Part shown: positions 20,781 through 43,167 of the stretch, piece by piece | Layout of the letters: each line of letters starts with the position of its first letter | How positions within the stretch are numbered: position 1 is the stretch's first letter | Source of the DNA: Patescibacteria group bacterium | GTDB taxonomy: Bacteria > Patescibacteriota > WWE3 > JAUXAW01 > JAYEID01 | Assembly: GCA_034659915.1 (NCBI GenBank) | Contig: JAYEID010000002.1 | Coordinates: 2,089-66,088, forward strand | Reading direction: 5' to 3' | DNA length: 64,000 nt | Program-made: the position numbers and the translations under genes | The notes under the pieces: model-generated | Databases searched by the model: none | The model's input: the letters and a program-made list of their open reading frames with translations, nothing else | What the model was told of the DNA's origin: nothing

Positions 20781-23700
20781 ATGAAAAAAACGTTGTTTGT
20801 TTTTATTTTTTACGGACTGATAACTCTTTTTTTTCTAAGAGGGGTTTTGTTTTTTCCGGGACAACCTGCTGGCGGGGATTGGGGGTTTCCATTTACTCCG
20901 GCACAAGTAAGTCGTTATTTCGAAAGTAATCTTTATACCTGGACAGATACACAGCTTTTTGGGAGCCAGCAATACTTTCTTAATGGATTACCCTTTCGAT
21001 TTTTGACTTTGGTAGTGACTAGTTTGGGTATAACATGTGATATATATGCCAAGATTCTTCTAATCGTAGCGTTTGTTTTTCCTGCATTGTCAATGTATGC
21101 CCTTTGCAACTTTCTTGGTTGTGATAGGAAAGAAAGTTTTCTGGGCGGGCTTTTTTATATTACTTTTCCCTTCGTTTTTAACTATATAGCAATGGGATGG
21201 TTATTTGTTTTGTTCTCTATGGGTATATTGCCTTTGGCTGTTGTTTTTTTTATTAAATCAGTTGAAGATAAAAACATTTTTTACGCTATCTTGACAGGAG
21301 TTTTGTATTTTCTGGCAATGATCCAATCCCAAACCCTCATTTGGTATCCTTTAGTTTTTCTTTCTTTGAGTATATTTTTTGTGGGAGAAAGAGAAAGAAT
21401 TTTTTCTTACGTCAAATCATTTTTAGTTGTTCTTTTGGTCTTTTCTGCTCTCAACACGTACCTTTGGTTACCGTTATTTTTGGGTGAGGGAAGCGGTGTT
21501 GTTTCTACAAAACTTGCGTTATCGCCAGGCAGCTTGGGAACATGGGCTAGATTGAGTTATCCAAATGTTTTAAGAGCTTGGGGTAGCTTATTTAATTATC
21601 AATATGAGTCTAGCTATCCAGTAGTTTTGACACCTTTTTCTTTTTTTATTCCCGTTTTAGCGTATTCTTCACTATTTTTAGTTTTTGGCAAAAAGAAAAA
21701 AATCGTGTTGTCTTTTGCCGCGTTGTCGTTTATACCCTTATTTCTGCTTATATTAGGCCCAGATATCATTGTAAAGCTACCCTTTTCCGATATCATCCGT
21801 GATGCTGGAAGATTTTCAGTTCTTTCCTCTTTCTCCTATGTTGTTATGGCAATTTTAACTTTGCGGGTTCTGTTTAAACAGGCTAAGGGCCATTCTAATA
21901 TATTTAAAATTGGGTTGATTATTGTTCTTGCTATTAATACGTATCCATTTTGGTCAGGTGCTCTTTATGGAGAACAAGAGCATCAATATGATATTAGGTT
22001 GCGGGGTTATGAGTTTCCTCTAGGATACACTTCTCTAGAAGAAAGTTTAAAGAACAAAAGGGGGGACATTAAAGTTTTGTATCTCCCAATTGGGGGCAGT
22101 TTAAACATTGTTGACGATAAAAGGTTTTACGGTCCCTTTAAGGAAATACAGGATATTTTTGCAGCCCTTTCGCCCAAACCGGGAGTTATTACTATTAATG
22201 ACAGAGACTTAGGTGCTGCCTCAAAATTGATTTTTCATATGAGAACGGTGCTTAAGAGCCAGCATTTTAATACCTTTGATAGTTTACTTCCTTTGATGAA
22301 TGTGCGCTATATTGCAGTTAGAGAAAATGTAAAGCATTCGCCAGGCCTTCCGGGAAAAGGACAGACTATTTTATTGAGTGAAAAGACTGATTTAAATATG
22401 GAGAACCGGTGGAGCAGAATTTCGCTATTGAAAAATGAAAGATTTATTCCTCATTTTTATGTACCTAGAACAGAAAATTACGTGGTAGGTGAAGTTTCAA
22501 TCTTGTCAGATGTTTTGGATATTTTAGAATCTCCGTTACGCACTTCAATGTATATTGTTCCTTTGGAAACAATGCAAGAGGGTTTGAGTACTCCTATTTT
22601 AAAGAAAAAAAGAACAAATGTTCTAACTCGGGCAGATAGTGTTTTGGTTGAGGCTTCTTTATTTTATTTTGATAGTTTTGATGAGGTATTGGAATGGGGT
22701 GATGGCTGGGTGTGGCCGGAAGTGAGTGTGGATCCGGATAGTTGGAAATATCCTGCGGTGAAAATTAAAGAACGTTGGGTGGAGTTCCGGGCTGGGGATT
22801 CTCTGGCGGAGGCGGATGTTTTGATTTGGCATGCGAGTAAGAAGATAGCGGAGATTGAAAAGTTCAATCCAGCGAAGGCTAAAGCCGAAAAATTGCTGGA
22901 GAATTATTTGGAGAAGGCTGGGAGGTCTGTTGATGTGCTCAAGAGTGTTCCGGAGGAAGAAAGAGACGAGGATTATTGGGGGATGGTGAATAAAGTTCTG
23001 GCGTACACTGATAAAGCTGAAGAGAAGATCGCTGAGAACACTGATGGGAAATCGGAGGAGATTAGGAAATTAAGGGATGATTTTAGGGGTTGGGTGGAGG
23101 AGGAAGGTGACTTTTGGTGTCCGGAGGAGAAGTATTGTTATGAGGTGGGTGTGCCTGAGGGCGGTCTATATACGCTGTATATAGACAAGAACACCCTTCG
23201 ATCAGACTCAGGGCAGGCAGATGACACAGATAAGGGGCAGATCGAACAGATAGATGGGGAGGCAAAGAACACGGATAATACGGATAGAGGACAGATTGAA
23301 CGGATCAATGCTGAAGTTGTTAATCTAGAACCAGTAACGGAGGAAATTGATGGAGGGCCTGTCCCCCATAGCTTTAGCGACGGGGGATGGGTGAGTTATG
23401 GGGAGTATGAGTTTGAGGAAAGTGAAGGGCAGAAAATTGTTCTGGATCTGCCGGAGATGCCTAATTTGGTTGGAACTGATTTACGAGATGTATCGTTTTC
23501 CGGCTTTTTAAGTATGCGGGATAGGTTCTTGCGCGACGAGATTCAAGATTGGCAAGCCGGTGAGAATTATAAACTTTCTTTTGATTATACGACTTTAGGC
23601 GGGGGTATTGGCGTGGCGGTTTTTGAAGAAACTTTTGATTGGGAGAAGCTTGCCGAAAGTGGGGCAGGTTACGAAGAGGTAAAGGATGATCCGGAATTTT

Positions 23701-24662
23701 TTGAAATGAATACTATTTTTAGAAAAGAATTACAAAGTCCTTCTCTGTATTTTGAAGAAGAGGGGTACCTTGACAGTTGGGAAAGTTTTGAGACGGAACT
23801 TGAACCAAGTTCTTATACCCGCGGGGCAACGCTTCTTATTTATGCTGTTCCTGATGAAGATGGGTTTACTGAGGCTGGCGCTCGGGATGTTTCGGTGCAG
23901 AGAATTTTGGAGCCCAAACTGGTTCTTAGGAAAGACGCGGAGAACGCGGATATAGATACGGAGAACGCGGACGCGGACACCGATAACGCGGATAAGGAGC
24001 TGATAACGCGGGATATTCCGAACATAAAATTTATAAGGGTTAATCCGACGAAATACAAGATTCAAGTTAGTGGGGCGACGGAGGCTTATCCGTTGGTGTT
24101 TAGTGAGAGTTTTCATGATGGATGGAAGGTTTACGCGGATAATACTGACGGGGAAACGGATAACGCGGAAAGAGACGAAGGAAAAATAGGGAATAGTGAA
24201 GAAGATAAGGGATATGGAATAGGGAATAATATAACAAGAACTTTTTGGAGCGTATTGGGAAGAGGTTTAGCTTGGATTACTGATTTGTTTTTGGATAACG
24301 GGGATTATGGAGAGGAGGTTGCCAGTTATTTTGACGGGGAAATTCGTGAGGGTACGCATAGGAATACTTTTATGGAACCGGCAACTTTTGAAACTTGGGG
24401 TAAGAAGCCTATTGAAGCAGAACATATTAAAGTGAATGGCTATGCCAACTCTTGGTACATTGATCCAACACGGATTTGCGCGGATGCAGATATATGTACG
24501 GAGAACGCGGATGGGAGTTATGATATGGAGTTGGTGGTGGAGTTTTTCCCCCAGCGTCTTTTTTACCTAGGATTACTGATAAGTAGCTTAACGCTGGTTG
24601 GTTGTGTTAGCTATTTGGGATTTGCAGTAATTAAGGGCAAAAAAGACGTGAGAAATTCATAA
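20781..24662 (+). CDS. 1293-aa membrane protein: N-terminal multi-TM domain, long acidic repeat-containing extracytoplasmic region, C-terminal TM anchor
   Basis: At least 9 TM helices in the first ~400 aa. Imperfect peptide repeats DDTDKGQIEQIDGEAKNTDNTDRGQIERINAEV (about 23215-23310) and ENADIDTENADADTDNADKE (about 23935-24010), with further TDNAE/TENADG motifs built on an AACGCGGA DNA motif. C-terminal anchor PQRLFYLGLLISSLTLVGCVSYLGFAV. Confidence 0.55.
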   Translation: MKKTLFVFIFYGLITLFFLRGVLFFPGQPAGGDWGFPFTPAQVSRYFESNLYTWTDTQLFGSQQYFLNGLPFRFLTLVVTSLGITCDIYAKILLIVAFVFPALSMYALCNFLGCDRKESFLGGLFYITFPFVFNYIAMGWLFVLFSMGILPLAVVFFIKSVEDKNIFYAILTGVLYFLAMIQSQTLIWYPLVFLSLSIFFVGERERIFSYVKSFLVVLLVFSALNTYLWLPLFLGEGSGVVSTKLALSPGSLGTWARLSYPNVLRAWGSLFNYQYESSYPVVLTPFSFFIPVLAYSSLFLVFGKKKKIVLSFAALSFIPLFLLILGPDIIVKLPFSDIIRDAGRFSVLSSFSYVVMAILTLRVLFKQAKGHSNIFKIGLIIVLAINTYPFWSGALYGEQEHQYDIRLRGYEFPLGYTSLEESLKNKRGDIKVLYLPIGGSLNIVDDKRFYGPFKEIQDIFAALSPKPGVITINDRDLGAASKLIFHMRTVLKSQHFNTFDSLLPLMNVRYIAVRENVKHSPGLPGKGQTILLSEKTDLNMENRWSRISLLKNERFIPHFYVPRTENYVVGEVSILSDVLDILESPLRTSMYIVPLETMQEGLSTPILKKKRTNVLTRADSVLVEASLFYFDSFDEVLEWGDGWVWPEVSVDPDSWKYPAVKIKERWVEFRAGDSLAEADVLIWHASKKIAEIEKFNPAKAKAEKLLENYLEKAGRSVDVLKSVPEEERDEDYWGMVNKVLAYTDKAEEKIAENTDGKSEEIRKLRDDFRGWVEEEGDFWCPEEKYCYEVGVPEGGLYTLYIDKNTLRSDSGQADDTDKGQIEQIDGEAKNTDNTDRGQIERINAEVVNLEPVTEEIDGGPVPHSFSDGGWVSYGEYEFEESEGQKIVLDLPEMPNLVGTDLRDVSFSGFLSMRDRFLRDEIQDWQAGENYKLSFDYTTLGGGIGVAVFEETFDWEKLAESGAGYEEVKDDPEFFEMNTIFRKELQSPSLYFEEEGYLDSWESFETELEPSSYTRGATLLIYAVPDEDGFTEAGARDVSVQRILEPKLVLRKDAENADIDTENADADTDNADKELITRDIPNIKFIRVNPTKYKIQVSGATEAYPLVFSESFHDGWKVYADNTDGETDNAERDEGKIGNSEEDKGYGIGNNITRTFWSVLGRGLAWITDLFLDNGDYGEEVASYFDGEIREGTHRNTFMEPATFETWGKKPIEAEHIKVNGYANSWYIDPTRICADADICTENADGSYDMELVVEFFPQRLFYLGLLISSLTLVGCVSYLGFAVIKGKKDVRNS

Positions 24663-24668
24663 ACTATT

Positions 24669-24926
24669 ATGTTCTACGTTTATGTATTGCTGAGTGAAAA
24701 AGATGGTAAACGTTATATTGGTTATACCGAGGATTTGAGAAAGCGCGTTAAGGAACATAATTCAGGTAAAGTTAAATCAACCAGACATCGAAGACCTTTA
24801 CACTTGATTTATTATGAGGCTTGTCTAAATAAGAAAGATGCGAAGGCGAGAGAAAAGTATTTGAAAGGTGCGTGGGGATATAAATTTTTGGACAAACGCC
24901 TTAAGAATTTCTATGAAAGTTTATGA
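24669..24926 (+). CDS. GIY-YIG nuclease family protein (85 aa, catalytic domain only)
   Basis: FYVYVLLSEKDGKRYIGYTEDLRKRVKEHN matches the GIY...YIG...R...E...N motif set. Starts 7 bp after the stop of the 1293-aa gene. Confidence 0.8.
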   Translation: MFYVYVLLSEKDGKRYIGYTEDLRKRVKEHNSGKVKSTRHRRPLHLIYYEACLNKKDAKAREKYLKGAWGYKFLDKRLKNFYESL

Positions 24927-24965
24927 ATTTCGGGGGCAAGTATCCCCGAATTTTGGGACAAAATT

Positions 24966-25083
24966 CTTGGGGTGGCCCCAGAGGCTCTTTTATCTTGGAC
25001 TTTTAATTAGTAGTGTAACTTTGCTGGGTTGCTTGAGTTATCTAGGTTATGCTCTCGTAACTAACGCTAATAAACGCGAATGA
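24966..25083 (+). pseudogene. orphan gene fragment paralogous to the C-terminal TM anchor of CDS 20781..24662
   Basis: Encodes GWPQRLFYLGLLISSVTLLGCLSYLGYALV, against PQRLFYLGLLISSLTLVGCVSYLGFAV at the end of the 1293-aa protein. DNA differences are mostly synonymous or conservative. The upstream part of track ORF 24868..25083 overlaps the GIY-YIG gene out of frame. Confidence 0.45.
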
Positions 25084-25116
25084 CTGCGCGAATTCACGCG
25101 AAATCTATAAGCAGTA

Positions 25117-25755
25117 TTAGTTCTCCTTTTTTTCATAGAAACCGGATAGTTCGTAGAGTTTATCTAAGACAGGGAGGGAGGTGTTGATGATTTTTTGCAC
25201 ATCTTCCCGTTTTAGAACTGGGTAGTAATCCAAAGGCTTACAAATAGTAAGAATTTCGTGAACTGCCTCGTAAAGCTCGTTGGAAAGGTAGCCCTTTTCG
25301 TGCAGATGCTTGGCAACATCTTCTGCCGGTTGGTCGTGAATTTTTTCTTTGTCTTTTAACCACCGTTCTTGAATTTCATAAAGCCTTTTCTTTATTTGCT
25401 GACGAATTTTTCCAGTAGTAAGGCAGGGGTTGGTGTCATCCGTTGAATTCTTTATTTTTTCTTGCACTTGGTTTTTTACGTTTTCATTTTCCACACCGTC
25501 TTTTTGGCGCAAATTGCGTACAGCCTGGCGCGCCCGCTCCAAATCTCTTTCGAAAGAAAAGAAATAGGCAATGTTCCCTTTCTTAATAGAAGGAAGAATA
25601 AGCATAATAAAAAGAATTGCTAAAAACCAGGCGGAATGGCGATCCACATTAACTAGGTTAGGAAAAAAGGTATGGAGAATAAGGATAAGGAGGACAAGTA
25701 GAGTGTAAAGCAATGCTGGTGTAATCTTGCGAAAAATATTCTTAACAATCTCCAC
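25117..25755 (-). CDS. hypothetical membrane-anchored protein (2 N-terminal TM helices plus charged soluble domain)
   Basis: ORF only; no motifs recognised. Confidence 0.45.
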   Translation of the reverse strand: MEIVKNIFRKITPALLYTLLVLLILILHTFFPNLVNVDRHSAWFLAILFIMLILPSIKKGNIAYFFSFERDLERARQAVRNLRQKDGVENENVKNQVQEKIKNSTDDTNPCLTTGKIRQQIKKRLYEIQERWLKDKEKIHDQPAEDVAKHLHEKGYLSNELYEAVHEILTICKPLDYYPVLKREDVQKIINTSLPVLDKLYELSGFYEKKEN

Positions 25756-25793: not shown

Positions 25794-26501
25794 TTGGACG
25801 ATTGTCCTTCAGTTCTTGACAAAATTCCATTTTTATTCCACAATTACTACCAAATGATTAGTATTTCTGGAATAAAATACCAAGAAAAACTGGAAAAATT
25901 GCCGTATTTTAATAAAAAGACGGCGGGGATGCTTATTGGCAAAAGCGGCAAGAATTTGGATAAGAAAATACAAGCCCTTTTGGATAAGGGTTACCTTGTT
26001 TCGTTAAAAAAGGGCCTCTATGTCACTTCGACGTTTGCAGAAAAGGAGAGCAGTAAATCTCGGTATTTGGAATATTTGGCCAATGTTTTGCGCTACCCTT
26101 CTTATGTTTCCTTGGAATATATTTTAGCGAAAAACGGGTTGATTCCGGAAGCTGTTTATTCAATTACCTCCATAACTCTTAAAACCACGCGCACTTACAA
26201 AAACGAGTTAGCCAGTTTTATCTACCGCAACATTAAGGAGCCTCTTTTCTGCGGTTATAATACAAAGCGTTATTTGGATAACAAGGTTAAAATAGCTGTG
26301 CCTGCCAAAGCACTTTTTGATTTTTTGTACCTTAAAAGCGGCTTAACGGACAATTTAGAATATCAACTTTTGGAGAAACTTCGTATTAATTGGGAGCAGT
26401 TGGTTAGGCAAGATGTGGAAGAGTTCCGTGCGTTCGTTAAAAAAGCGGATTCTTCAAAGATGGAGAGTATTCTTGAAGTTTTAGAAAAGGAGGTATTTTA
26501 A
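25794..26501 (+). CDS. AbiEi-like antitoxin/transcriptional regulator (type IV TA), putative
   Basis: Sits immediately upstream of, and overlaps by 1 bp (ATGA), an AbiEii-family nucleotidyltransferase gene. Size and the basic N-terminal region are consistent with the AbiEi wHTH family. Assignment rests mainly on context. Confidence 0.45.
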   Translation: MDDCPSVLDKIPFLFHNYYQMISISGIKYQEKLEKLPYFNKKTAGMLIGKSGKNLDKKIQALLDKGYLVSLKKGLYVTSTFAEKESSKSRYLEYLANVLRYPSYVSLEYILAKNGLIPEAVYSITSITLKTTRTYKNELASFIYRNIKEPLFCGYNTKRYLDNKVKIAVPAKALFDFLYLKSGLTDNLEYQLLEKLRINWEQLVRQDVEEFRAFVKKADSSKMESILEVLEKEVF

Positions 26502-27331
26502 TGCTTGTTAACAGTCTGGCTCGCACTGTAAATGAAAATCAAGATGAACCAAAAATATTTCTCCGCAATCTTTTAAAGGAGGTATTGCAGGGGTATACAT
26601 TAAATTTTATTTATACCTCTAATTACCAAGATGACTTTCTTTTTACGGGAGGGACTTGCCTGCGTTTTTGTTTTGGTTTGAACAGGCTTTCGGAAGATTT
26701 GGATTTGGATATAAAAAACGAAGATGATTTTGAACTTGATAAATTCTTAGTAGATTTGGGAGATTATTACCAGAAAGATTTGCAGTTCAAAGATTTGGAA
26801 ATAAAGACAGCGGGTAACGAAAGGCAGGTCTACCTTAAATTCCCTGTGCTGCGGGAGCTTGGTCTTGCAGAAGATGACAGTGAAAGCAATATTCTCTTTT
26901 TGCGATTGGATATTAACCCGTTACCTTCTTTGGTTTTTAGCGAGGATGTTTCTATGTATTCCAGTGCAGACTTTAGTTTTGTGATCAGGAGATATTCTTT
27001 GGAGGACATCTTTGCTTCCAAATTGGCGGCTATCCTCACACGCGAGTTTGAAAAGGGCGGGGGTTCGGCTACTTTCAAAGGAAGAGATTATTATGATTTA
27101 ATTTGGTTTTTGCAAAAAGACGTCGAACCTAACTACGAAAGGATAGAAGACCTTACGGAGTTTGACTCGCGAGAAGTTATTTTAAAGAATCTCGATGAAA
27201 AAGTGCAAGCCGTTAGTGAGCGTGCTTTGGAAGCGGATCTTTTGCCTCTTTTTGATAACCCGGATTTTGTAAAGGATTTTTCTCGTCAATTTAAAGAGCT
27301 TTATTCGGAGCTCCGCCCCCGTTTAGCTTAA
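26501..27331 (+). CDS. nucleotidyltransferase AbiEii/AbiGii toxin family protein (DUF1814)
   Basis: GGTCLRFCFGLNRLSEDLDLD matches the GGTAL...R.SeDlDf signature of AbiEii NTase toxins. Confidence 0.65.
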   Translation: MLVNSLARTVNENQDEPKIFLRNLLKEVLQGYTLNFIYTSNYQDDFLFTGGTCLRFCFGLNRLSEDLDLDIKNEDDFELDKFLVDLGDYYQKDLQFKDLEIKTAGNERQVYLKFPVLRELGLAEDDSESNILFLRLDINPLPSLVFSEDVSMYSSADFSFVIRRYSLEDIFASKLAAILTREFEKGGGSATFKGRDYYDLIWFLQKDVEPNYERIEDLTEFDSREVILKNLDEKVQAVSERALEADLLPLFDNPDFVKDFSRQFKELYSELRPRLA

Positions 27332-27401
27332 TTTTTTTTGTTATTTTCTATTCCTTATTTTCTATTTCCCATTTCCTATTGATTATGCTATAGTTACGGT
27401 A

Positions 27402-27968
27402 ATGAAGCGATTGCTGGCGGTGACATTTTTGGGGCTCTTTTTTGCTGGGGATGTGTATGCCGGGGAGATTTTGGAGGAGGCGGCGCGGGTTTCCGGGGAA
27501 TTTGGCCGTAAAGATATTAAGCTGGCGGAAGAAGCCCAGGCGGGGGGGATTTATAAACTTCCGTCCATTTCAGTAAAAAATACAGGAACCAACGAAGAAC
27601 GGTTCCAGGTTGACATTGTCTTTTTGGGTAGTGAGGGAGAAGGCTCTGGTGTTTCCTGGCTTAATGTGGAACCTTGGCGAATCACGCTTGACGCGGGAGA
27701 GGAAGCGGATGTAAAGCTGGGGCTAAAAGTTCCTGCCGGGGCGCGGGCAGGGGAATATAATTATCACTTAGAACTTAGGCGGGTATTGGAAGACGGCAAG
27801 GCGCACCCCAATCCGATGGATACTGCCGATATTCGGTTTAATGTGGAGGAGGGAAGTTTTTTTTCTGCAGTGAAGAGGAGGGTATCTTCTTACTTTAGTG
27901 CTAACCCAACGATGAGTCTTGTGGTTGCAGGGATTTTAATAGTTATTGCCATTAGTTTTCTTTGGTAA
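27402..27968 (+). CDS. secreted protein with signal peptide and C-terminal TM anchor, function unknown
   Basis: MKRLLAVTFLGLFFAGDVYA signal-like N-terminus. C-terminal hydrophobic segment MSLVVAGILIVIAISFLW. Confidence 0.45.
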   Translation: MKRLLAVTFLGLFFAGDVYAGEILEEAARVSGEFGRKDIKLAEEAQAGGIYKLPSISVKNTGTNEERFQVDIVFLGSEGEGSGVSWLNVEPWRITLDAGEEADVKLGLKVPAGARAGEYNYHLELRRVLEDGKAHPNPMDTADIRFNVEEGSFFSAVKRRVSSYFSANPTMSLVVAGILIVIAISFLW

Positions 27969-27969
27969 G

Positions 27970-28140
27970 ACGGTGTGGAAGATACTGGATAAGAAATAAG
28001 AAATAGGGAATAATGGATAATGAATAGGAAATAAGAGATAAGGAATAATAAATAAGGGATATAGGGAATAAGAAATAGGGGATAGGGAATACTAAATACT
28101 AGATACCAAATACTAAATACCAAATACTGAATACGATTTA
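27970..28140. repeat. purine-rich degenerate repeat block (GGAATAAG / AATACTAAATAC units), mirror of 2330-2660 block
   Basis: gataagaaataagaaatagggaataatggataatgaataggaaataagag... Similar blocks at 27335-27400 (CT-rich) and 28530-28610 (AG-rich). Confidence 0.6.
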
Positions 28141-28533
28141 ATGGTGAAATTTATAAAAATCATAAAGACAAAGATCAGAAGTTTGTTTGCGTTAATTAAG
28201 GGTAAGTTGGGGCCGTTTCGTTACTATCTTTTGGCATTTACAGCCCTCGGGATTTTTGTGGATACCTTCTTTTTTGACTTTACCTCTGATTTGGTTATTT
28301 TGTTTTTTATTTTTCTTTGGATTATGGCAAGCTGGCTTTTTTCTTTTGAAGGGAGGGTTTCGGTGGGGGTTGGCCTTGGGTTCTTGGTGCTTTGCCCCTT
28401 TCTTTTAATTTTTAAGGCGGATTTTATTGCAGAAAAGGCAGCTGTTTGGGCGTATATGTTTCTTTTGGTGGGTGTTGTACATGAAATCATTGAGTTTAGG
28501 GAGGAAAGAACGCAGGAAGCAAATACTAAATAG
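28141..28533 (+). CDS. small hypothetical membrane protein (130 aa)
   Basis: Three predicted TM helices. Embedded between repeat blocks. Weak. Confidence 0.3.
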   Translation: MVKFIKIIKTKIRSLFALIKGKLGPFRYYLLAFTALGIFVDTFFFDFTSDLVILFFIFLWIMASWLFSFEGRVSVGVGLGFLVLCPFLLIFKADFIAEKAAVWAYMFLLVGVVHEIIEFREERTQEANTK

Positions 28534-28639
28534 TAAATAGTAAATAATAAATAAGAAATAATGAATAAAAAATAGGGAATAATGGATAAGGAATAAGAAG
28601 ATACGTTGTTCCATTGTTCTAGGGCTCGATTGCTAGATA

Positions 28640-28922
28640 CAAACGTTAATGAACGCGAATACTACAAACACGAATCTACGCGAATCAAAAGCGAATAAAC
28701 GCGAATGTAGATTATTGGTGTACTAGTTAGCTGGGTATGAAAAGAAACCTAAGCTCCCGTCATTCTGGAACGGAGGTTGTCAAGGCGGAGTGATAGAATC
28801 TCGGCCCAAAGGGCCGGACGGGAGCGGATAAAAGGAAGACTCTATCAGGCTCGGGGGACCGAGCCTTCCAGAGTGACTGCCTTTTTGTACAAGTTACTAG
28901 TTACGAGTTGCCAGTTACTAAA
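28640..28922. repeat. intergenic composite: G-family ACGCGAAT repeats (28640-28710), hairpin-rich segment (28745-28885), H-family AGTTACTAGTTAC repeats (28888-28922)
   Basis: The same G and H repeat families recur inside CDS 29007..30950 (29826-30088, 30787-30822) and after genes at 25065-25105, 32642-32696 and 33388-33490. Confidence 0.55.
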
Positions 28923-29006
28923 TACTACATACTAAATATTAAATATTAAATATTAAATAGGGATATCAAGTAATGGGTTGCTAACTATTAACTACCAAAA
29001 AAACCA

Positions 29007-30950
29007 ATGACCTCGCAATTCAAAAAAACACTCCTTTTTATTATTATTTTTTCCTCGATTTTCCTTTTTTACTTTTCTCCGCTTGTGTTTAATGTATTTG
29101 GTTCAAGAACTTTGGGTTATTGGGGCGACAAGTTGGGGTTAATTGCCCGCTTGAGGGAAGGGCGCATCGGCTTTTTGAATCAACCTGCGTTACGCTTGAT
29201 GATTGGAATTCTTCGATCGGGTTTTTCTCCTTTTGGAGTTTATAATTTTTTGGTTCTTTTGAGTTTTCCTTTGACCTGCTTTTTTTCTTACCGGTTTTTC
29301 TGTAAAGTTCTGGGCAACGGAAAGACCCTTGAAAACAATAAGACCCGTCCTTCAGGAAAGGACGGGTCTTTCTATCTCTGTGGGGATGGGGGTTTCCTCT
29401 CTTTTCTCTCCTTTGTGCTAGCATTGATTTTTACTTTTTCCCCTTATCATATTTATAAAAGTTATAACCACGTTGACCTTGCGCAGATTTGGGTTTTTCC
29501 TCTTTTCTTTTCTGCGCTTTTGGATTTTGATTATGCAATTAGAAAACGTTTTTTGAGCAGTCATCCTGATCCCGACTTATCGGGAGAAGGATCTACTGCG
29601 AGGGACCTATACAGCAGGGGATTCTTCACCCCCGACAGGTCGGGGGTTCAGAATGACGAGGGAAATATTGTGCAAGCTACTTTGAGGCTTTCTGTTGTGA
29701 TGGCGGGGACGACGTTGATTTCTAATTATTATGGATACTTTACCTTGCTGATAATTGCGATATATTTCACTATTGAACTTTTACGAAATATTGAGAAATA
29801 TGTGCATAGATTTGAGTTATCAGCTACTGATTTACGCAGATTGATAACGGATTTACGCCGATTGTTGAAAACGAACGCTAATCAACGCGAATTGAAAACG
29901 AATATACGCGAATTGAAGAAGGATTTTCGCGGATGGATAGCTGATTTACGCCGATCAGAGGATTCACGTGGATTAATAGCTGATTCACACAGATCGGAAA
30001 ACGAAATGCCGAATGCGGATGGCGGAATGCGGATGGCGGAACGCGGTTTACAAATTACCAGTTACCTGTTACTAGTTGCAAGTTACGTTCTTTTCACCGT
30101 TCCTTTTTTGCTGCCCTATATACGCGGGATTTATTTTGGGGATACTGGTGGTGATGAAGTTGTAGCTCGGGTGGCAACTGGTGTTTCTCGGCGAGATGTG
30201 ACGGATTTTGTGGCTTTTTCCGCGCGGCCGTGGTATTACATTGTTCCCTCTATTGACCACCCTATTTTTGGCAACTTTGCTCAAGGTGTACACGACTGGT
30301 TTGAAAGCACGGGATACTTCCTTTTTGATGATTTTTTTTGGGAAGAACATTCGGCGGTCTATTTAGGAATAGTTAATTTAATTTTGACAGGTTACGCTAT
30401 ATATAAGTTATTCTGGGCAAAAAGAACCGCCGAATGCGGGGTAGAAAATAATGAATATGGAATAAGGAAAGAGGAGGAAATGGTAGATGATAAATTGCAA
30501 ATTTCGAACAATGAAAAAAATGGCAGGGGTACTAGTTACGATCCGCCAGCTGGCGGAACGAATTACATTTCTCTCTTTTTCTGGCTTGGGGTTGGTCTGT
30601 TCATTCTTTCCATGCCGCCGTTTATTTCGTTGGGTTTTGCAAAAATTTATTTACCTTCTTATCTTTTGATGAAGGTCTTTCCGATGTTTAGGACAATTTC
30701 TCGCTTGGGGCTTCCTTTGCTTCTTTGCGTTTTGGTTCTTACCGGCTACGGTTTACAGTTGTTGAAGGAGCGATTTTCTCTTTCTCGTACTAGTTACTTG
30801 TTACTAGTTACCAGTTATTGTTTCCTAGCGCTCTTCGAATTCTACTTCCCGCCGGTGATTAAAAAGGTTCCTCCCGGAGGGTGGCGAATTGATTTCGATA
30901 TTATTTCCGAAAATCCAGAGGTGCGTGAGGTGAATATTATTGAAGAGTAA
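29007..30950 (+). CDS. multi-pass membrane protein (GT-C-like) with a mosaic of in-frame repeat insertions
   Basis: TM-rich N- and C-terminal portions. The central segment is built from F-family hairpins (29568-29648), G-family 'gatttacgc/acgcgaat' repeats (ATDLRRLITDLRRLLKTNANQRELKTNIRELKK...), GCGGAATGCGGATGGCG repeats, H-family repeats, and a family-C hairpin at 29340-29372. Confidence 0.5.
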   Translation: MTSQFKKTLLFIIIFSSIFLFYFSPLVFNVFGSRTLGYWGDKLGLIARLREGRIGFLNQPALRLMIGILRSGFSPFGVYNFLVLLSFPLTCFFSYRFFCKVLGNGKTLENNKTRPSGKDGSFYLCGDGGFLSFLSFVLALIFTFSPYHIYKSYNHVDLAQIWVFPLFFSALLDFDYAIRKRFLSSHPDPDLSGEGSTARDLYSRGFFTPDRSGVQNDEGNIVQATLRLSVVMAGTTLISNYYGYFTLLIIAIYFTIELLRNIEKYVHRFELSATDLRRLITDLRRLLKTNANQRELKTNIRELKKDFRGWIADLRRSEDSRGLIADSHRSENEMPNADGGMRMAERGLQITSYLLLVASYVLFTVPFLLPYIRGIYFGDTGGDEVVARVATGVSRRDVTDFVAFSARPWYYIVPSIDHPIFGNFAQGVHDWFESTGYFLFDDFFWEEHSAVYLGIVNLILTGYAIYKLFWAKRTAECGVENNEYGIRKEEEMVDDKLQISNNEKNGRGTSYDPPAGGTNYISLFFWLGVGLFILSMPPFISLGFAKIYLPSYLLMKVFPMFRTISRLGLPLLLCVLVLTGYGLQLLKERFSLSRTSYLLLVTSYCFLALFEFYFPPVIKKVPPGGWRIDFDIISENPEVREVNIIEE

Positions 30951-41036: not shown

Positions 41037-41063
41037 TTTCTATTTCGAGTTAATTAAAAATCT

Positions 41064-41270
41064 CTTTTCCCTTTTCGAGCGATTCTTGGAGCGAGAAATC
41101 ACAGTAAGAGAATTTATTCCTATTTTGACTTAATGAGACTTTCCGCTTTGTTGGGATTCGTTCGAAATGGTCCATAGGGTTACTTACCTTTTCGAAGGAG
41201 TCCCGACTGAGGAATCACAATATAAGAAGATCCCTATTTTGATTTCTCCCCAGGCCTCGAAAAGGGAATT
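41064..41270. repeat. two tandem ~100-bp repeat units (TTTTCCCTTTTCGAGCGATTCTTGGAGCGAGAAATCACA...TTTATTCCTATTTTGATTTCTC) upstream-flanking GIY-YIG gene
   Basis: The units share a conserved TTTTCGAG...CTCGAAA inverted pair. Two further copies lie at 41590-41775. Confidence 0.7.
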
Positions 41271-41276
41271 GTAGAT

Positions 41277-41585
41277 TCAAGGTTCTTTCCAAGTTGTCTT
41301 AATTGTTTCATTCAGATGTTCTATTTGTTTTTTTCTTTCTTCTGACATATTGTCGATTAGATCTTCCTTCTTCTTTTGGCTATAGTCTTTGATTTGCCTT
41401 TCTCGTTTCAGGGCCTCTCTTTTAGTATCACACATTTCAAAATAAACTAATTTCAACGGTCTTCTTGTTTTGGTATAACTAGGGCCAAGGCCATTGTGGT
41501 GCTTCCAGAATCTTAACTTTAGATCGTTGGTCATCCCAGTATAATATCGTGCAGTTCTAAGTTTAAGTATGTAAATGAAAAACAT
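41277..41585 (-). CDS. GIY-YIG nuclease family protein (102 aa)
   Basis: FFIYILKLRTARYYTGMTNDLKLRFWKHHNG (GIY/YIG-type N-motif; R...H.N) plus a basic C-terminus. Confidence 0.7.
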   Translation of the reverse strand: MFFIYILKLRTARYYTGMTNDLKLRFWKHHNGLGPSYTKTRRPLKLVYFEMCDTKREALKRERQIKDYSQKKKEDLIDNMSEERKKQIEHLNETIKTTWKEP

Positions 41586-41589
41586 TTTA

Positions 41590-41775
41590 TTTCTTCCTTT
41601 TCGAGCGATTCTTGGAGCGAGAAATCACAATAAAAGGATTTATTCCTATTTTGATTTCTCAGAGTATTTCGAAATGGGTGATAGGTTTATTTCCCTTTTC
41701 GAGTGATTCTTAGAGCGAGAAATCACAAAAGAAAGATTTTTCCTATTTTGATTTCTCGGCAGACCTCGAAATGGA
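41590..41775. repeat. two further tandem copies of the ~100-bp repeat flanking the GIY-YIG gene
   Basis: ttccttttcgagcgattcttggagcgagaaatcacaataaaaggatttattcctattttgatttctc / tttcccttttcgagtgattcttagagcgagaaatcacaaaagaaagatttttcctattttgatttctc. Confidence 0.7.
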
Positions 41776-43167
41776 TCTGTTGCCCTGAAAAGTTTCTAGA
41801 TAAGTTTCTGCAACAGCTTCCCACCTATAACCCTTCGCCATTTCTTTCGCATTTTCTGCTAAGTTTCTGCGTAATTCTGCATTCTTTTCTAATCTTATCA
41901 TCTCTTCCGCGAGTTCCTCGGCGTTTTTAGTTTCGAAGAGAAGTGCGGTTTTTCCATCTTCAAGTATTTCGGCGAGGCCCCCAGTCTTAGAGGCAATTAT
42001 TGGTTTACCTGCTGCTGCTAACTCTAAGGCAACAATGCCGAAGGGTTCTCTGTACGAGGGGATAATTGTAAAGTTTGCGTTTTGTATGTATTGAAGCAGT
42101 TCGATCCCTGATTTGAATCCCACAAAGCTGATTTTTTCCTCTAGGTTTTTTACTTTTACTAATTTTTCTAATTCTTTGCGGCTGGTACCGTCGCCGACAA
42201 TAACTAAATTACTGTTCAACTCGTCTTCTACTTTTGCGTAGGCTTTGATTAAGGTATCCACACCTTTTTTTGGTACTAGACGGCCGAGGTAAAGAATGTA
42301 GGGGGAAAGACTCGCCAATTTTTGAGGGTCGGCTAACTTCTCAACCGCCGCACCTGCCTGCCGGCAAGGCAGGTTCCCTAGCCTCTGGGGCTGCGGAAAA
42401 GAAGCCCCAGGGGCTTCTCCTGCGGCGGCGCAGGCACCTACTTGGGCTAAGGGGCAGCCGGTGCAGGATGATTTTGTGGGTGATAAGTCCCGTCCTTTTT
42501 GTAAGGACGGGACTTTACTTTTTAAAAGGTCTCCGATTTGGAAAAATTTTTGGTCAACACCGTTAGCAATTATTTCAATTTTCTTCTCGGCTTGGGGAAA
42601 GTTATTGGTAAGGTCTTCTTTTATGTATTCGGAGTTAACAATAATTTTTCTTGCGCGGTTAATTAGTTTTTTTAGGAAGAACCGGTACCACAGCTTTTTT
42701 CCAAAAACTTGTAGATCATTGCCGTGGATGTTGAGGATTAGAGGTGCAGGGTTGGGTGAGAATAGGTCGCCGCATTCCTCAGCCCCAGGGGCTGGGTCCG
42801 CAGAAGCCCCTGGGGCTTCTCCTGCGGCTAACGCTAACCAGACATAGACCGAGGAATCGTCCGGAAAGTGGTAGTTGACAATGTCCGGGTTATATTTAGA
42901 AACAAGTCGAACGAGATTGGTTAGACCGGTTAGGAAACGAAAGGGGAACGCAAGGAAACCCAGAAGTGATCGCGGTAAGTTTAACCAGACTCGTTGAACA
43001 TCTATGCCGTCCACTTGAGCTTTTTTCTCTTTTGCCTTACCCATTTGGGAAGCAATAACTAATACTTCATGACCCTTTGCTTTAAATTCTTTTGCCAGAT
43101 TTAAAACAACATTTTCGACCCCTCCAGTAAAAGGAAAAAATCTGGAAGAAATTAAAAGTATTTTCAT
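41743..43167 (-). CDS. glycosyltransferase family 4 (GT-B) carrying two family-A inserts and one family-C insert
   Basis: MKILLISSRFFPFTGGVENVV N-terminus; C-terminal EPFGIVALELAAAGKPIIASKTGG (E-x7-E). Inserts are translated as LAAGEAPGASADPAPGAEECGDL (42769-42828), GACAAAGEAPGASFPQPQRLGNLPCRQAGAAV (42354-42428) and KVPSLQKGRDLSP (42485-42517). Confidence 0.8.
   Translation of the reverse strand: MKILLISSRFFPFTGGVENVVLNLAKEFKAKGHEVLVIASQMGKAKEKKAQVDGIDVQRVWLNLPRSLLGFLAFPFRFLTGLTNLVRLVSKYNPDIVNYHFPDDSSVYVWLALAAGEAPGASADPAPGAEECGDLFSPNPAPLILNIHGNDLQVFGKKLWYRFFLKKLINRARKIIVNSEYIKEDLTNNFPQAEKKIEIIANGVDQKFFQIGDLLKSKVPSLQKGRDLSPTKSSCTGCPLAQVGACAAAGEAPGASFPQPQRLGNLPCRQAGAAVEKLADPQKLASLSPYILYLGRLVPKKGVDTLIKAYAKVEDELNSNLVIVGDGTSRKELEKLVKVKNLEEKISFVGFKSGIELLQYIQNANFTIIPSYREPFGIVALELAAAGKPIIASKTGGLAEILEDGKTALLFETKNAEELAEEMIRLEKNAELRRNLAENAKEMAKGYRWEAVAETYLETFQGNRSISRSAEKSK
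42354..42428. repeat. composite family-D hairpin plus family-A element, in-frame in GT4 gene
   Basis: ctgcctgccggcaaggcaggttccctagcctctggggctgcggaaaagaagccccaggggcttctcctgcggcgg. Confidence 0.8.
42485..42517. repeat. family-C full hairpin (AAGTCCCGTCCTTtttgtAAGGACGGGACTT), in-frame in GT4 gene
   Basis: aagtcccgtcctttttgtaaggacgggacttta. Near-identical copies at 63758-63791, 55603-55642 and 38686-38722. Confidence 0.85.
42769..42828. repeat. family-A element in-frame in GT4 gene
   Basis: gccgcattcctcagccccaggggctgggtccgcagaagcccctggggcttctcctgcggc. Confidence 0.85.

Follow-up and report, generated by a model that had tools for sequence, protein, structure and literature searches.

A putative mobile homing-type cassette with a GIY-YIG nuclease gene and a replacement gene end in a Patescibacteria genome

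The window analysed here, a stretch of 64,000 nucleotides (nt) from a Patescibacteria metagenome-assembled genome (MAG; P0001), contains a gene for a large membrane protein, hereafter the host gene, whose last codons occur twice, once on each side of a small GIY-YIG nuclease gene (L numbers denote the loci compared, P numbers proteins). We read positions 24546 to 24972 as a mobile homing-type cassette of about 430 bp, seated between the EF and WPQRLFY codons of this GT-C-like gene, and give this reading a probability of roughly 0.75. The cassette would comprise the last ~30 host codons from (W)PQRLFY onwards, a tail with its stop codon (..RNS), the 85-amino-acid (aa) GIY-YIG gene and a structured right end. 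The gene body would read on into the anchor of the cassette and stay functional, with the original anchor left untranslated downstream; the host gene would survive because the cassette carries a replacement anchor. The features of the region are listed below, with their basis in parentheses.

20781-24662, + strand: host gene, open reading frame (ORF) of 1293 aa, ending ..YDMELVVEFFPQRLFYLGLLISSLTLVGCVSYLGFAVIKGKKDVRNS and stop (ORF list)
20781-24545, + strand: body of the host gene, encoding a large multi-pass membrane protein (ORF list)
24546-24632, + strand: anchor copy 1 (FPQRLFYLGLLISSLTLVGCVSYLGFAVI), in-frame, functional C-terminal transmembrane anchor, probably cassette-borne (codon table; analogy with L003 and L068)
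24633-24668, + strand: cassette tail (KGKKDVRNS, stop 24660-24662) and 6-nt spacer, DNA motif GACGTGAGAAATTCATAA (cassette alignment)
24669-24926, + strand: free-standing GIY-YIG nuclease gene, 85 aa, UPF0213 type, catalytic domain only (Pfam PF01541)
24927-24972, + strand: cassette right end, with stem-loop TTCGGGG..CCCCGAA, TTTT and then AAAATTCTTGGGG, abutting the displaced anchor (conserved among cassettes)
24973-25083, + strand: anchor copy 2 (WPQRLFYLGLLISSVTLLGCLSYLGYALVTNANKRE and stop), an orphan, probably the displaced native 3' end (codon table; tblastn)
25060-25105, + strand: short ACGCGAAT-type repeats over the orphan's tail and the DNA just beyond (repeat counts)

The initial annotation of this region had listed the end of the large gene, the GIY-YIG gene and a second anchor, and all three are present (20781-24662, 24669-24926 and the orphan downstream), the GIY-YIG ORF starting 7 nt after the host stop (24662). 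It had let the orphan run from 24966 to 25083; the end is right, but the anchor similarity begins only at the TGG codon at 24973, and the DNA upstream of it is unlike the gene body. Its description of recoded DNA with a conserved peptide agrees with our counts: over 29 aligned codons the two copies share 22 residues at a nucleotide identity of 64%, the 7 residue differences including F/W, L/V, V/L, F/Y and I/V, and the same codon is used in 7 of the 22 same-residue pairs, where 7.1 are expected from independent draws on window codon usage, so that synonymous sites are saturated while the peptide has been kept. The peptide match is far above chance (tblastn E 7e-14), and exactly two copies of the anchor were found by tblastn within the window. 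The repeats that the annotation had seen at the end of the orphan, its family G, hold up weakly (ACGCGAAT has 6 occurrences in the window, among them one at 25074, and an expected count of 1).

The orphan reading frame (ORF 24868-25083) encodes ..FLGWPQRLFYLGLLISSVTLLGCLSYLGYALVTNANKRE and a stop after the stem-loop. A part in some longer independent gene, which the annotation had named as fatal to its proposal, does not fit, because the start of the ORF would be a GTG inside the GIY-YIG gene and relatives have a stop 3-5 codons before the W codon; the orphan was likewise rejected as a separate small gene, having no conserved start and, in relatives, stops directly upstream. An assembly artefact was ruled out, because an independent Logan contig from the same sample (L001) has the identical arrangement and analogous arrangements recur in many other independent assemblies.

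Recurrence and decay of the layout at one site

We collected 143 loci whose products are related to the host protein over its last 200 aa, together with the contexts of the nearest GIY-YIG homologues. The layout (large GT-C-like gene, anchor 1, tail ..RN[S/L] and stop, spacer of 7-18 nt, GIY-YIG gene, right end, anchor 2) is complete in L003 (Shapirobacteria), L011, L137, L145-147 (Magasanikbacteria), L148/149, L150/151, L156 and L157, and takes a tandem form in L159 and L160. Intact elements stand in at least 10 other independent loci with host proteins 30-68% identical, at least 15 other genomes are occupied at the same spot, and in every occupied locus anchor 2 starts at the codon before PQ (W/PQRLFY). 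Seen from the nuclease, the full layout surrounds P0027, P0028, P0034, P0039, P0040 and P0043, six out of the eight closest GIY-YIG homologues for which the context was read. P0045 (L157) has the full layout plus an extra GIY-less unit; P0053 (L158) lies ~270 nt downstream of a host-family gene and forms a sister clade together with L115. Three more distant homologues (62-67% identical) lie in other contexts without flank duplication, and no flank duplication was found around the distant homologues of L152-L155, one of which interrupts a 23S_rRNA_IVP pseudogene.

In about 104 distinct relatives the anchor is single and a GIY-YIG gene is absent, which supplies the comparison with GIY-less relatives that the annotation had proposed. 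The presence of the cassette is polymorphic at one homologous site, with 104 distinct alleles empty and no fewer than 11 loci occupied. Towards the gene end, coding conservation is highest in GARTTYTGGCCNCARMGNYTNTTYTAY, which encodes EFWPQRLFY, and the empty-site consensus contains ..GTNGAATTTTGGCCCCAGCGNCTTTTTTAT...

Degenerate units were also found. L069 has a GIY-YIG pseudogene and no anchor 2; in L068 the GIY start is followed by an insert of ~125 nt resembling a miniature inverted-repeat transposable element, a 15-codon remnant and then a deletion, most of the GIY-YIG gene being gone. L159 and L160 each hold two tandem units, one of them with an internally deleted GIY gene, and the second, GIY-less unit of L157 has an anchor identical to anchor 1 at 116/117 positions. 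L134 is a GIY-less solo unit, and L027 retains the tail and the first right-end bases only. This series displays the cycle of invasion, degeneration and loss that marks homing endonuclease genes.

The tail (..RN[S/L] and stop) is found in the window, L003, L137, L145, L148, L150, L156, L157 and L159. We rejected it as a native variant of the gene end, its GIY-less carriers being cassette remnants (L068, L027) or a probable coincidence (L070). A left consensus, GYNAGAAATTYATAA, covering the last anchor-1 codons and the stop, is kept as DNA in L011 and L069 though an earlier stop makes it non-coding there; the left tail DNA is probably the ribosome-binding region of the GIY-YIG gene. The homology between anchor 1 and anchor 2 stops after basic RKRK-type residues, which sets the duplicated segment at ~100 nt and the core at ~300-340 nt. 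The tail (..AGAAATTTATAA) and the end of the GIY gene (..AAAAATTTATAA) are alike and make up a short direct repeat that could offer a route to loss of the ORF.

The right end exists in a long version with stem-loop and AAATTCTTGGG (window, L003, L011, L148) and a short one, AATTTCGGGGGC (L137, L145, L150, L156, L157), and in either case anchor 2 follows directly with its [W/E/Q/G]-CCC-CAG codons. A nested stem-loop is formed by the long version, L003 and L011 having base changes in both arms of the stem (as judged by eye), and a terminator-like hairpin at 24967-24981 spans the junction, its G-run pairing with CCCC of anchor 2 ahead of the T-rich Leu-Phe-Tyr codons. Hairpins of the short version fold no better than shuffled sequence, and a scan for sigma-70 promoters gave nothing useful.

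The uniformity of this junction bears on the notion that a tandem paralogue was deleted and left the orphan anchor behind. Paralogues in tandem, their anchors homogenised, do occur in the family (L019, L023, L106, L107, L114, L140, L142), but in every occupied locus the orphan has the same first codon, directly preceded by the conserved right-end DNA, and no remnant of a paralogue body lies upstream of it; we give this notion next to no credence.

Four side observations concern these loci. A GIY-YIG gene 67% identical to that of the window (L152 2780-3700, Desulfothermus naphthae, and L153) lies inside a disrupted 23S_rRNA_IVP (four-helix-bundle) gene, which it splits without duplication between ..NI(V)EG and GKGHSKKE.. 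of a conserved motif, so that a member of the family from outside the candidate phyla radiation (CPR) interrupts a conserved site. The ~125-nt insert of L068 (2975-3100) follows right after the ATGTTT start and has a miniature inverted-repeat look (..CATCCTGAACTTGATTCAGGATCTG..). In L160 a gene with a weak Transposase_mut (PF00872) match (770-1459, - strand) directly follows the downstream GIY-YIG gene and may have replaced the right end. In L009 (5200-5416) a fragment ~900 nt past the gene end fuses ..FDGEIKGGEHKNIFLEKATLKTWE.. to IEFGPQRLFY and an anchor, with no GIY-YIG gene between.

Origin of the two anchors

In pairwise alignment, the DNA of L003 and L068 is identical at 148/210 positions (70%) over the 210 nt that precede the W codon and at 108/120 (90%) from GAATTTTGG through anchor 1, tail, stop, spacer and the GIY ATG (Fisher p 3e-5), the gene bodies not being close relatives despite the near-equal anchor 1 and tail. 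This step at the W codon means that the upstream anchor travels with the nuclease gene; L011 and L069 show the same step in weaker form (72% to 81%). The downstream anchor follows the host lineage in other loci: L137 shares 21/26 positions of anchor 2 and 14/26 of anchor 1 with L110, and 23/26 and 16/26, respectively, with L094, while anchor 2 of L011 has the lineage-specific Q-PQ and is nearer to the empty-site relatives of its host than anchor 1 is. The anchor-1 copies of very different hosts use CCC CAG CGN, where empty sites prefer CCN CAA AGA. The identity of the GIY-YIG proteins (56-81%) does not track that of the host bodies (30-68%; Spearman rho 0.09, p 0.53, 55 pairs). Taken together, the step in L003/L068, the anchors of L011 and L137, the codon choice and the missing co-divergence place the left boundary at the W codon, with anchor 1 cassette-borne and anchor 2 the displaced native end. 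The step and the rho of 0.09 point to incongruence between element and host, as expected of horizontal spread.

The reverse assignment has also to be considered, in which the GIY-YIG gene and the anchor 3' of it would have moved together into a site just after the host stop, so that the upstream anchor would be native and the downstream copy a fragment brought along from a previous host. The downstream C-terminus is nearer the relatives in L011 and L137, the order being reversed or ambiguous in L003, no relative being close enough for a clean comparison; in L003 the upstream anchor is slightly nearer the host's relatives than the downstream one, an ambiguous case in which anchor 2 looks decayed. 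When the window's copies 1 and 2 are compared with their nearest DNA neighbours, everything is 63-70% identical and neither copy is assigned as native, so the cassette origin of copy 1 in the window is argued by analogy with the other loci. The reverse assignment is quite unlikely all the same, since the upstream anchor and tail of L003 and L068 are 90% identical with bodies at 70%, the downstream anchors of L011 and L137 match their host lineages (including the Q before PQ), and a long-carried passenger, given GIY proteins only 56-81% identical, should decay, yet the downstream anchor is intact in all occupied loci.

To estimate selection, the two anchors were compared within seven occupied genomes and the counts pooled; had anchor 2 arisen by duplication in place and then drifted, most changes would be expected to be non-synonymous. 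The proportions of differing synonymous (pS) and non-synonymous (pN) sites are 0.58 and 0.19, giving an omega (dN/dS) of ~0.2; the anchors of L145 differ by 12 synonymous and 4 non-synonymous changes. A null model with one neutral copy, as after duplication in situ, has binomial p values of 5e-4 for the window, 7e-4 for L145 and 3e-4 for the pool. It follows that divergence took place in separate genomes, with both copies functional, and that the two were joined later; the dN/dS comparison that the annotation had suggested rejects duplication in situ followed by decay.

The same figures tell against an ancient in-situ tandem duplication of the 3' end with a later or coincidental GIY-YIG insertion, vertical inheritance and many losses. 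Double anchors lacking a GIY-YIG gene do exist (L134, the second unit of L157), and the annotation had held that such loci would overturn its proposal. They keep cassette-specific tail or right-end DNA, however, and are for that reason GIY-deleted cassettes, not relics of an old duplication. A dN/dS of ~0.2 is too low for one copy neutral since the duplication, the divergence of the GIY genes does not follow that of the hosts, vertical descent is disfavoured by the L003/L068 step, and there are 104 distinct empty alleles; we regard the ancient duplication as very improbable. About as little speaks for a group I or II intron, or another spliced or bypassed insert, with the body and copy 2 forming the real protein. 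Excision of 24546-24972 (427 nt) would indeed bring ..VVEF and WPQRLFY together in one frame, as in the family consensus, but 24000-25600 has no Rfam match even at E<=1 and hence no recognised ribozyme, 427 nt are too few for a ribozyme plus ORF, and copy 1 is in frame and under purifying selection. This, too, can be given scarcely any weight.

Between anchors 1 and 2, pS rises with distance from the junction, from 0.36 at codons 2-8 to 0.61 at codons 9-16 and 0.67 beyond, against 0.90, 0.76 and 0.80 in the same codon bins of random empty-allele pairs, and in several genomes both anchors start with 17-36 identical nucleotides. The gradient looks like short conversion tracts running from the junction, which fits breaks there and could also be selection on the hairpin. 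The strains L150 and L151 have 0/487 differences over anchor 1, the GIY gene and the transmembrane part of anchor 2, and 11/289 differences in the following stretch (L150 4369-4657), starting exactly at the tail of the orphan anchor, which may point to the cassette having undergone a recent sweep or conversion.

In the proposal of the annotation, the original 3' end was displaced by one that a homing-type GIY-YIG cassette carried in; recurrence, empty sites, L003/L068, L011/L137 and dN/dS support it. What the comparison between loci shows is where the cassette begins and ends, that diverged hosts share it horizontally, that it is present or absent at one site, how it decays, and that both anchors were under purifying selection before their union.

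The nuclease and a proposed route of homing

The window protein is a member of the GIY-YIG superfamily and, by size and similarity, of the stand-alone UPF0213/COG2827 group. It matches PF01541 with an E value of 2.9e-17 over profile positions 1-70 of 78 and has the conserved residues of the family (Y3/Y5, Y16-I-G18, R24/R26, H30 and E51). A phmmer search of the PDB sequences returned 1zg2 (BH0048; E 4e-8) and 1ywl (EF2693; E 3e-6 [2.7e-6]), UPF0213/YhbQ stand-alone proteins that are alike in sequence, size and single-domain build; what sets one clade, that of the window, apart is its cassette-like and site-specific behaviour. Weak N-terminal matches to homing-endonuclease families were seen (TIGR01453, below cut-off, and phrog_5123), and the window protein has 2583 homologues at E<=1e-10. 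Nothing on mobility or a defined function was found in the UPF0213/YhbQ literature.

A mobile cassette with an imported anchor is very probable on the comparisons above, and we lean somewhat towards the GIY-YIG protein itself making the initiating break. The nuclease, or a break provoked by it, would cut the cassette-free allele at or near the sequence coding for EFWPQRLFY. Repair would then copy the cassette from an occupied allele, with the conserved gene body as left arm and the displaced anchor as right arm. Later the GIY-YIG gene would decay to a pseudogene, the cassette would suffer internal deletions and the orphan would be lost, leaving sites open to reinvasion. The role of the GIY-YIG protein as the breaker, the position of the cut and the import of the window's upstream copy are what we infer.

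Weighing against the cassette reading, besides the L003 anchors and the unassigned copies of the window, are the following. No close empty-site relative of the window MAG was found, the closest host relatives being ~40-54% identical, and no closely related pair of occupied and empty alleles was found for any locus. The junction of body and anchor 1 often keeps the empty-site consensus (L003, L068, L069, L156) and tandem cassettes exist (L157, L159, L160), so self-immunity by recoding is not evident and the annotation's idea of a recoded, cleavage-resistant copy finds no support here. All 85 residues of the nuclease are taken up by the catalytic domain, with no DNA-binding module. Characterised GIY-YIG homing enzymes, such as I-TevI and the Seg proteins, get their specificity from a DNA-binding domain.

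The live rival builds on several of these points: the cassette would be exchanged horizontally by ordinary homologous recombination after DNA uptake, with the GIY-YIG protein a passenger or cellular nuclease that cuts no target. The bare UPF0213-type catalytic domain, the related GIY-YIG genes in unrelated contexts lacking flank duplication, the target consensus kept at anchor-1 junctions and the published doubt about homing of CPR GIY-YIG ORFs (PMC11270868) all suit it. Against it, the nearest homologues checked are all at or beside the 3' end of one gene family, the junction lies at one precise conserved position, and the series of gain, decay and loss is typical of homing endonuclease genes; a pS of 0.36 at codons 2-8 against 0.67 distally is expected if breaks begin at the junction, and the GIY-less solo units look like decay products, not like the spreading form. 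On this balance we hold ordinary recombination to be improbable, and keep to homing of the cassette as the likelier course.

A wider idea, which we offer tentatively and consider rather unlikely, is that some UPF0213-type mini GIY-YIG proteins, a widespread group with thousands of homologues of which many are from CPR genomes, are minimal homing endonucleases with no DNA-binding domain, the cassette supplying what the protein lacks. The replacement end would keep the host gene working, the displaced end would serve as a portable homology arm and form a terminator hairpin with the G-run of the cassette, and homogenisation of the anchors near the junction would record ongoing self-cleavage and repair.

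A second GIY-YIG gene lies in the window at 41277-41585 on the - strand, encoding 102 aa that are 40% identical to the first protein over 67 aa. It sits (flanks 41040-41790) within an array of intergenic repeat units of ~60-70 nt (..gagaaatcaaaatagg..tgatttctcgctccaagaatcgctcgaaaagg..), and the stop of a 474-aa glycosyltransferase-like gene upstream of it falls inside one repeat unit; no duplicated coding end was found around this second gene.

Known systems and surroundings of the host gene

The closest published likeness is in fungal mitochondria, where gene hybrids were described for atp6 of Allomyces macrogynus and for atp6, atp9, cox2 and nad3 of Glomus sp. (PMC3630166). There, a mobile endonuclease ORF (mORF) brings a foreign C-terminus and the native one stays downstream, with duplicates of 64-81% DNA identity in Glomus, and endonuclease activity of the Allomyces element was reported biochemically (PMC3630166). 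C-terminal duplications of atp6 and cob are flanked by GIY-YIG or LAGLIDADG ORFs (PMC6279837). The window has the same order of gene core, in-frame foreign C-terminus, endonuclease ORF and displaced native C-terminus; in both systems the DNA of the duplicates is strongly diverged (64% identity in the window) with the protein conserved, eroded ORFs occur, and the native copy is nearer the relatives, here in L011 and L137. The window case differs in lying on a Patescibacteria chromosome, not in an organelle, and in its nuclease, which has 85 aa and a catalytic domain only and is a separate ORF 7 nt past the stop, whereas mORFs are often fused in frame. The duplicated segment here is ~100 nt with a single transmembrane helix, tandem and solo units are common, and the protein is known from sequence, the Allomyces endonuclease from biochemistry.

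GIY-YIG ORFs in insertions of CPR rRNA genes occupy scattered, poorly conserved sites and were judged unlikely to home (PMC11270868). They share with the window the host group, the protein superfamily and the non-intron type of insertion; the window clade differs in targeting one conserved protein-coding site and carrying a replacement gene end.

Two further systems resemble parts of the arrangement. Like the cassette nuclease, the Seg proteins of T4-like phages are free-standing GIY-YIG proteins encoded between or beside conserved genes and sporadic among relatives. They have ~200+ aa and DNA-binding domains and home without an intron, cutting both strands of the cassette-free allele so that the flanks are co-converted; in the case studied here, spread by a break is a proposal. 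The setting of Seg homing is phage co-infection as opposed to a cellular chromosome, and no duplicated gene end is known to be left. At Rhs and contact-dependent inhibition (CDI) polymorphic-toxin loci, a new C-terminal module recombines at a conserved motif and the old one becomes an untranslated orphan starting there, as the displaced anchor does here; those modules are toxins with immunity genes in competition between strains, in contrast to a membrane anchor with a linked nuclease gene.

We found no published report of such a cassette in bacterial chromosomes, the papers found reporting the arrangement from fungal mitochondria only. If the reading is right, it would extend a selfish-DNA strategy of fungal mitochondria, an endonuclease cassette with a replacement gene end, to CPR bacterial chromosomes, and it would provide one clade of the very large UPF0213/mini GIY-YIG family with an activity open to test and with a target, the EFWPQRLFY-coding site. 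Short, orphaned pieces of gene ends in CPR genomes could then be cassette footprints and not annotation noise, the intact, decayed, solo and tandem units would form a natural series for the life cycle of a homing element in uncultured bacteria, and a site-specific nuclease of 85 aa, if true, would interest enzyme engineers.

The host gene of the window sits in a glycosylation cluster, 3' of a GT2 gene and a methyltransferase gene (neighbours identified by profile); host genes of relatives are likewise usually preceded by a methyltransferase gene inside glycosylation clusters. The window host protein is 35-41% identical to its orthologues, the best homologue reaching 40% overall and 54% over the last 200 aa. 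Our own scans gave it no Pfam or NCBIfam match, and the GT-C assignment comes from precomputed matches to Pfam PF11847 (GT-C_AftD) recorded on some orthologues, the host genes of L145 and L148.

Further observations concern the host family and its surroundings. The intergenic DNA of the window (27342-28960 and 30011-30046) holds many tandem repeats, their periods being 7, 14 and 21 nt, and in-frame low-complexity peptides matching them lie within the 1293-aa protein (NTDNTD, ENADADTDNAD and DNTDGETDNAE, at ~23140-23300, 23950-24020 and 24130-24240); orthologues have other, lineage-specific repeat peptides at the same positions of the host protein. Positions 25794-27331 likely encode an AbiE-type toxin-antitoxin pair, consisting of a 276-aa ORF that matches PF08843 (AbiEii; E 3.8e-24) and overlaps by one base a 235-aa ORF that has no Pfam match. 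Two or three adjacent host-family paralogues occur in L023, L106, L107 and L140 (also L019, L114 and L142), one subfamily ending ..LTLYF[KR]PQSY..; the paralogue anchors are nearly identical within a genome, which suggests gene conversion between paralogue ends, independent of GIY-YIG genes. Relatives of the host C-terminal domain and anchor were also seen on contigs labelled as archaeal (L008, a Bathyarchaeia MAG, and L053, a Halobacteriota MAG), and many CPR-like contigs are labelled 'uncultured Gammaproteobacteria' and the like, possibly through mislabelling or inter-domain transfer.

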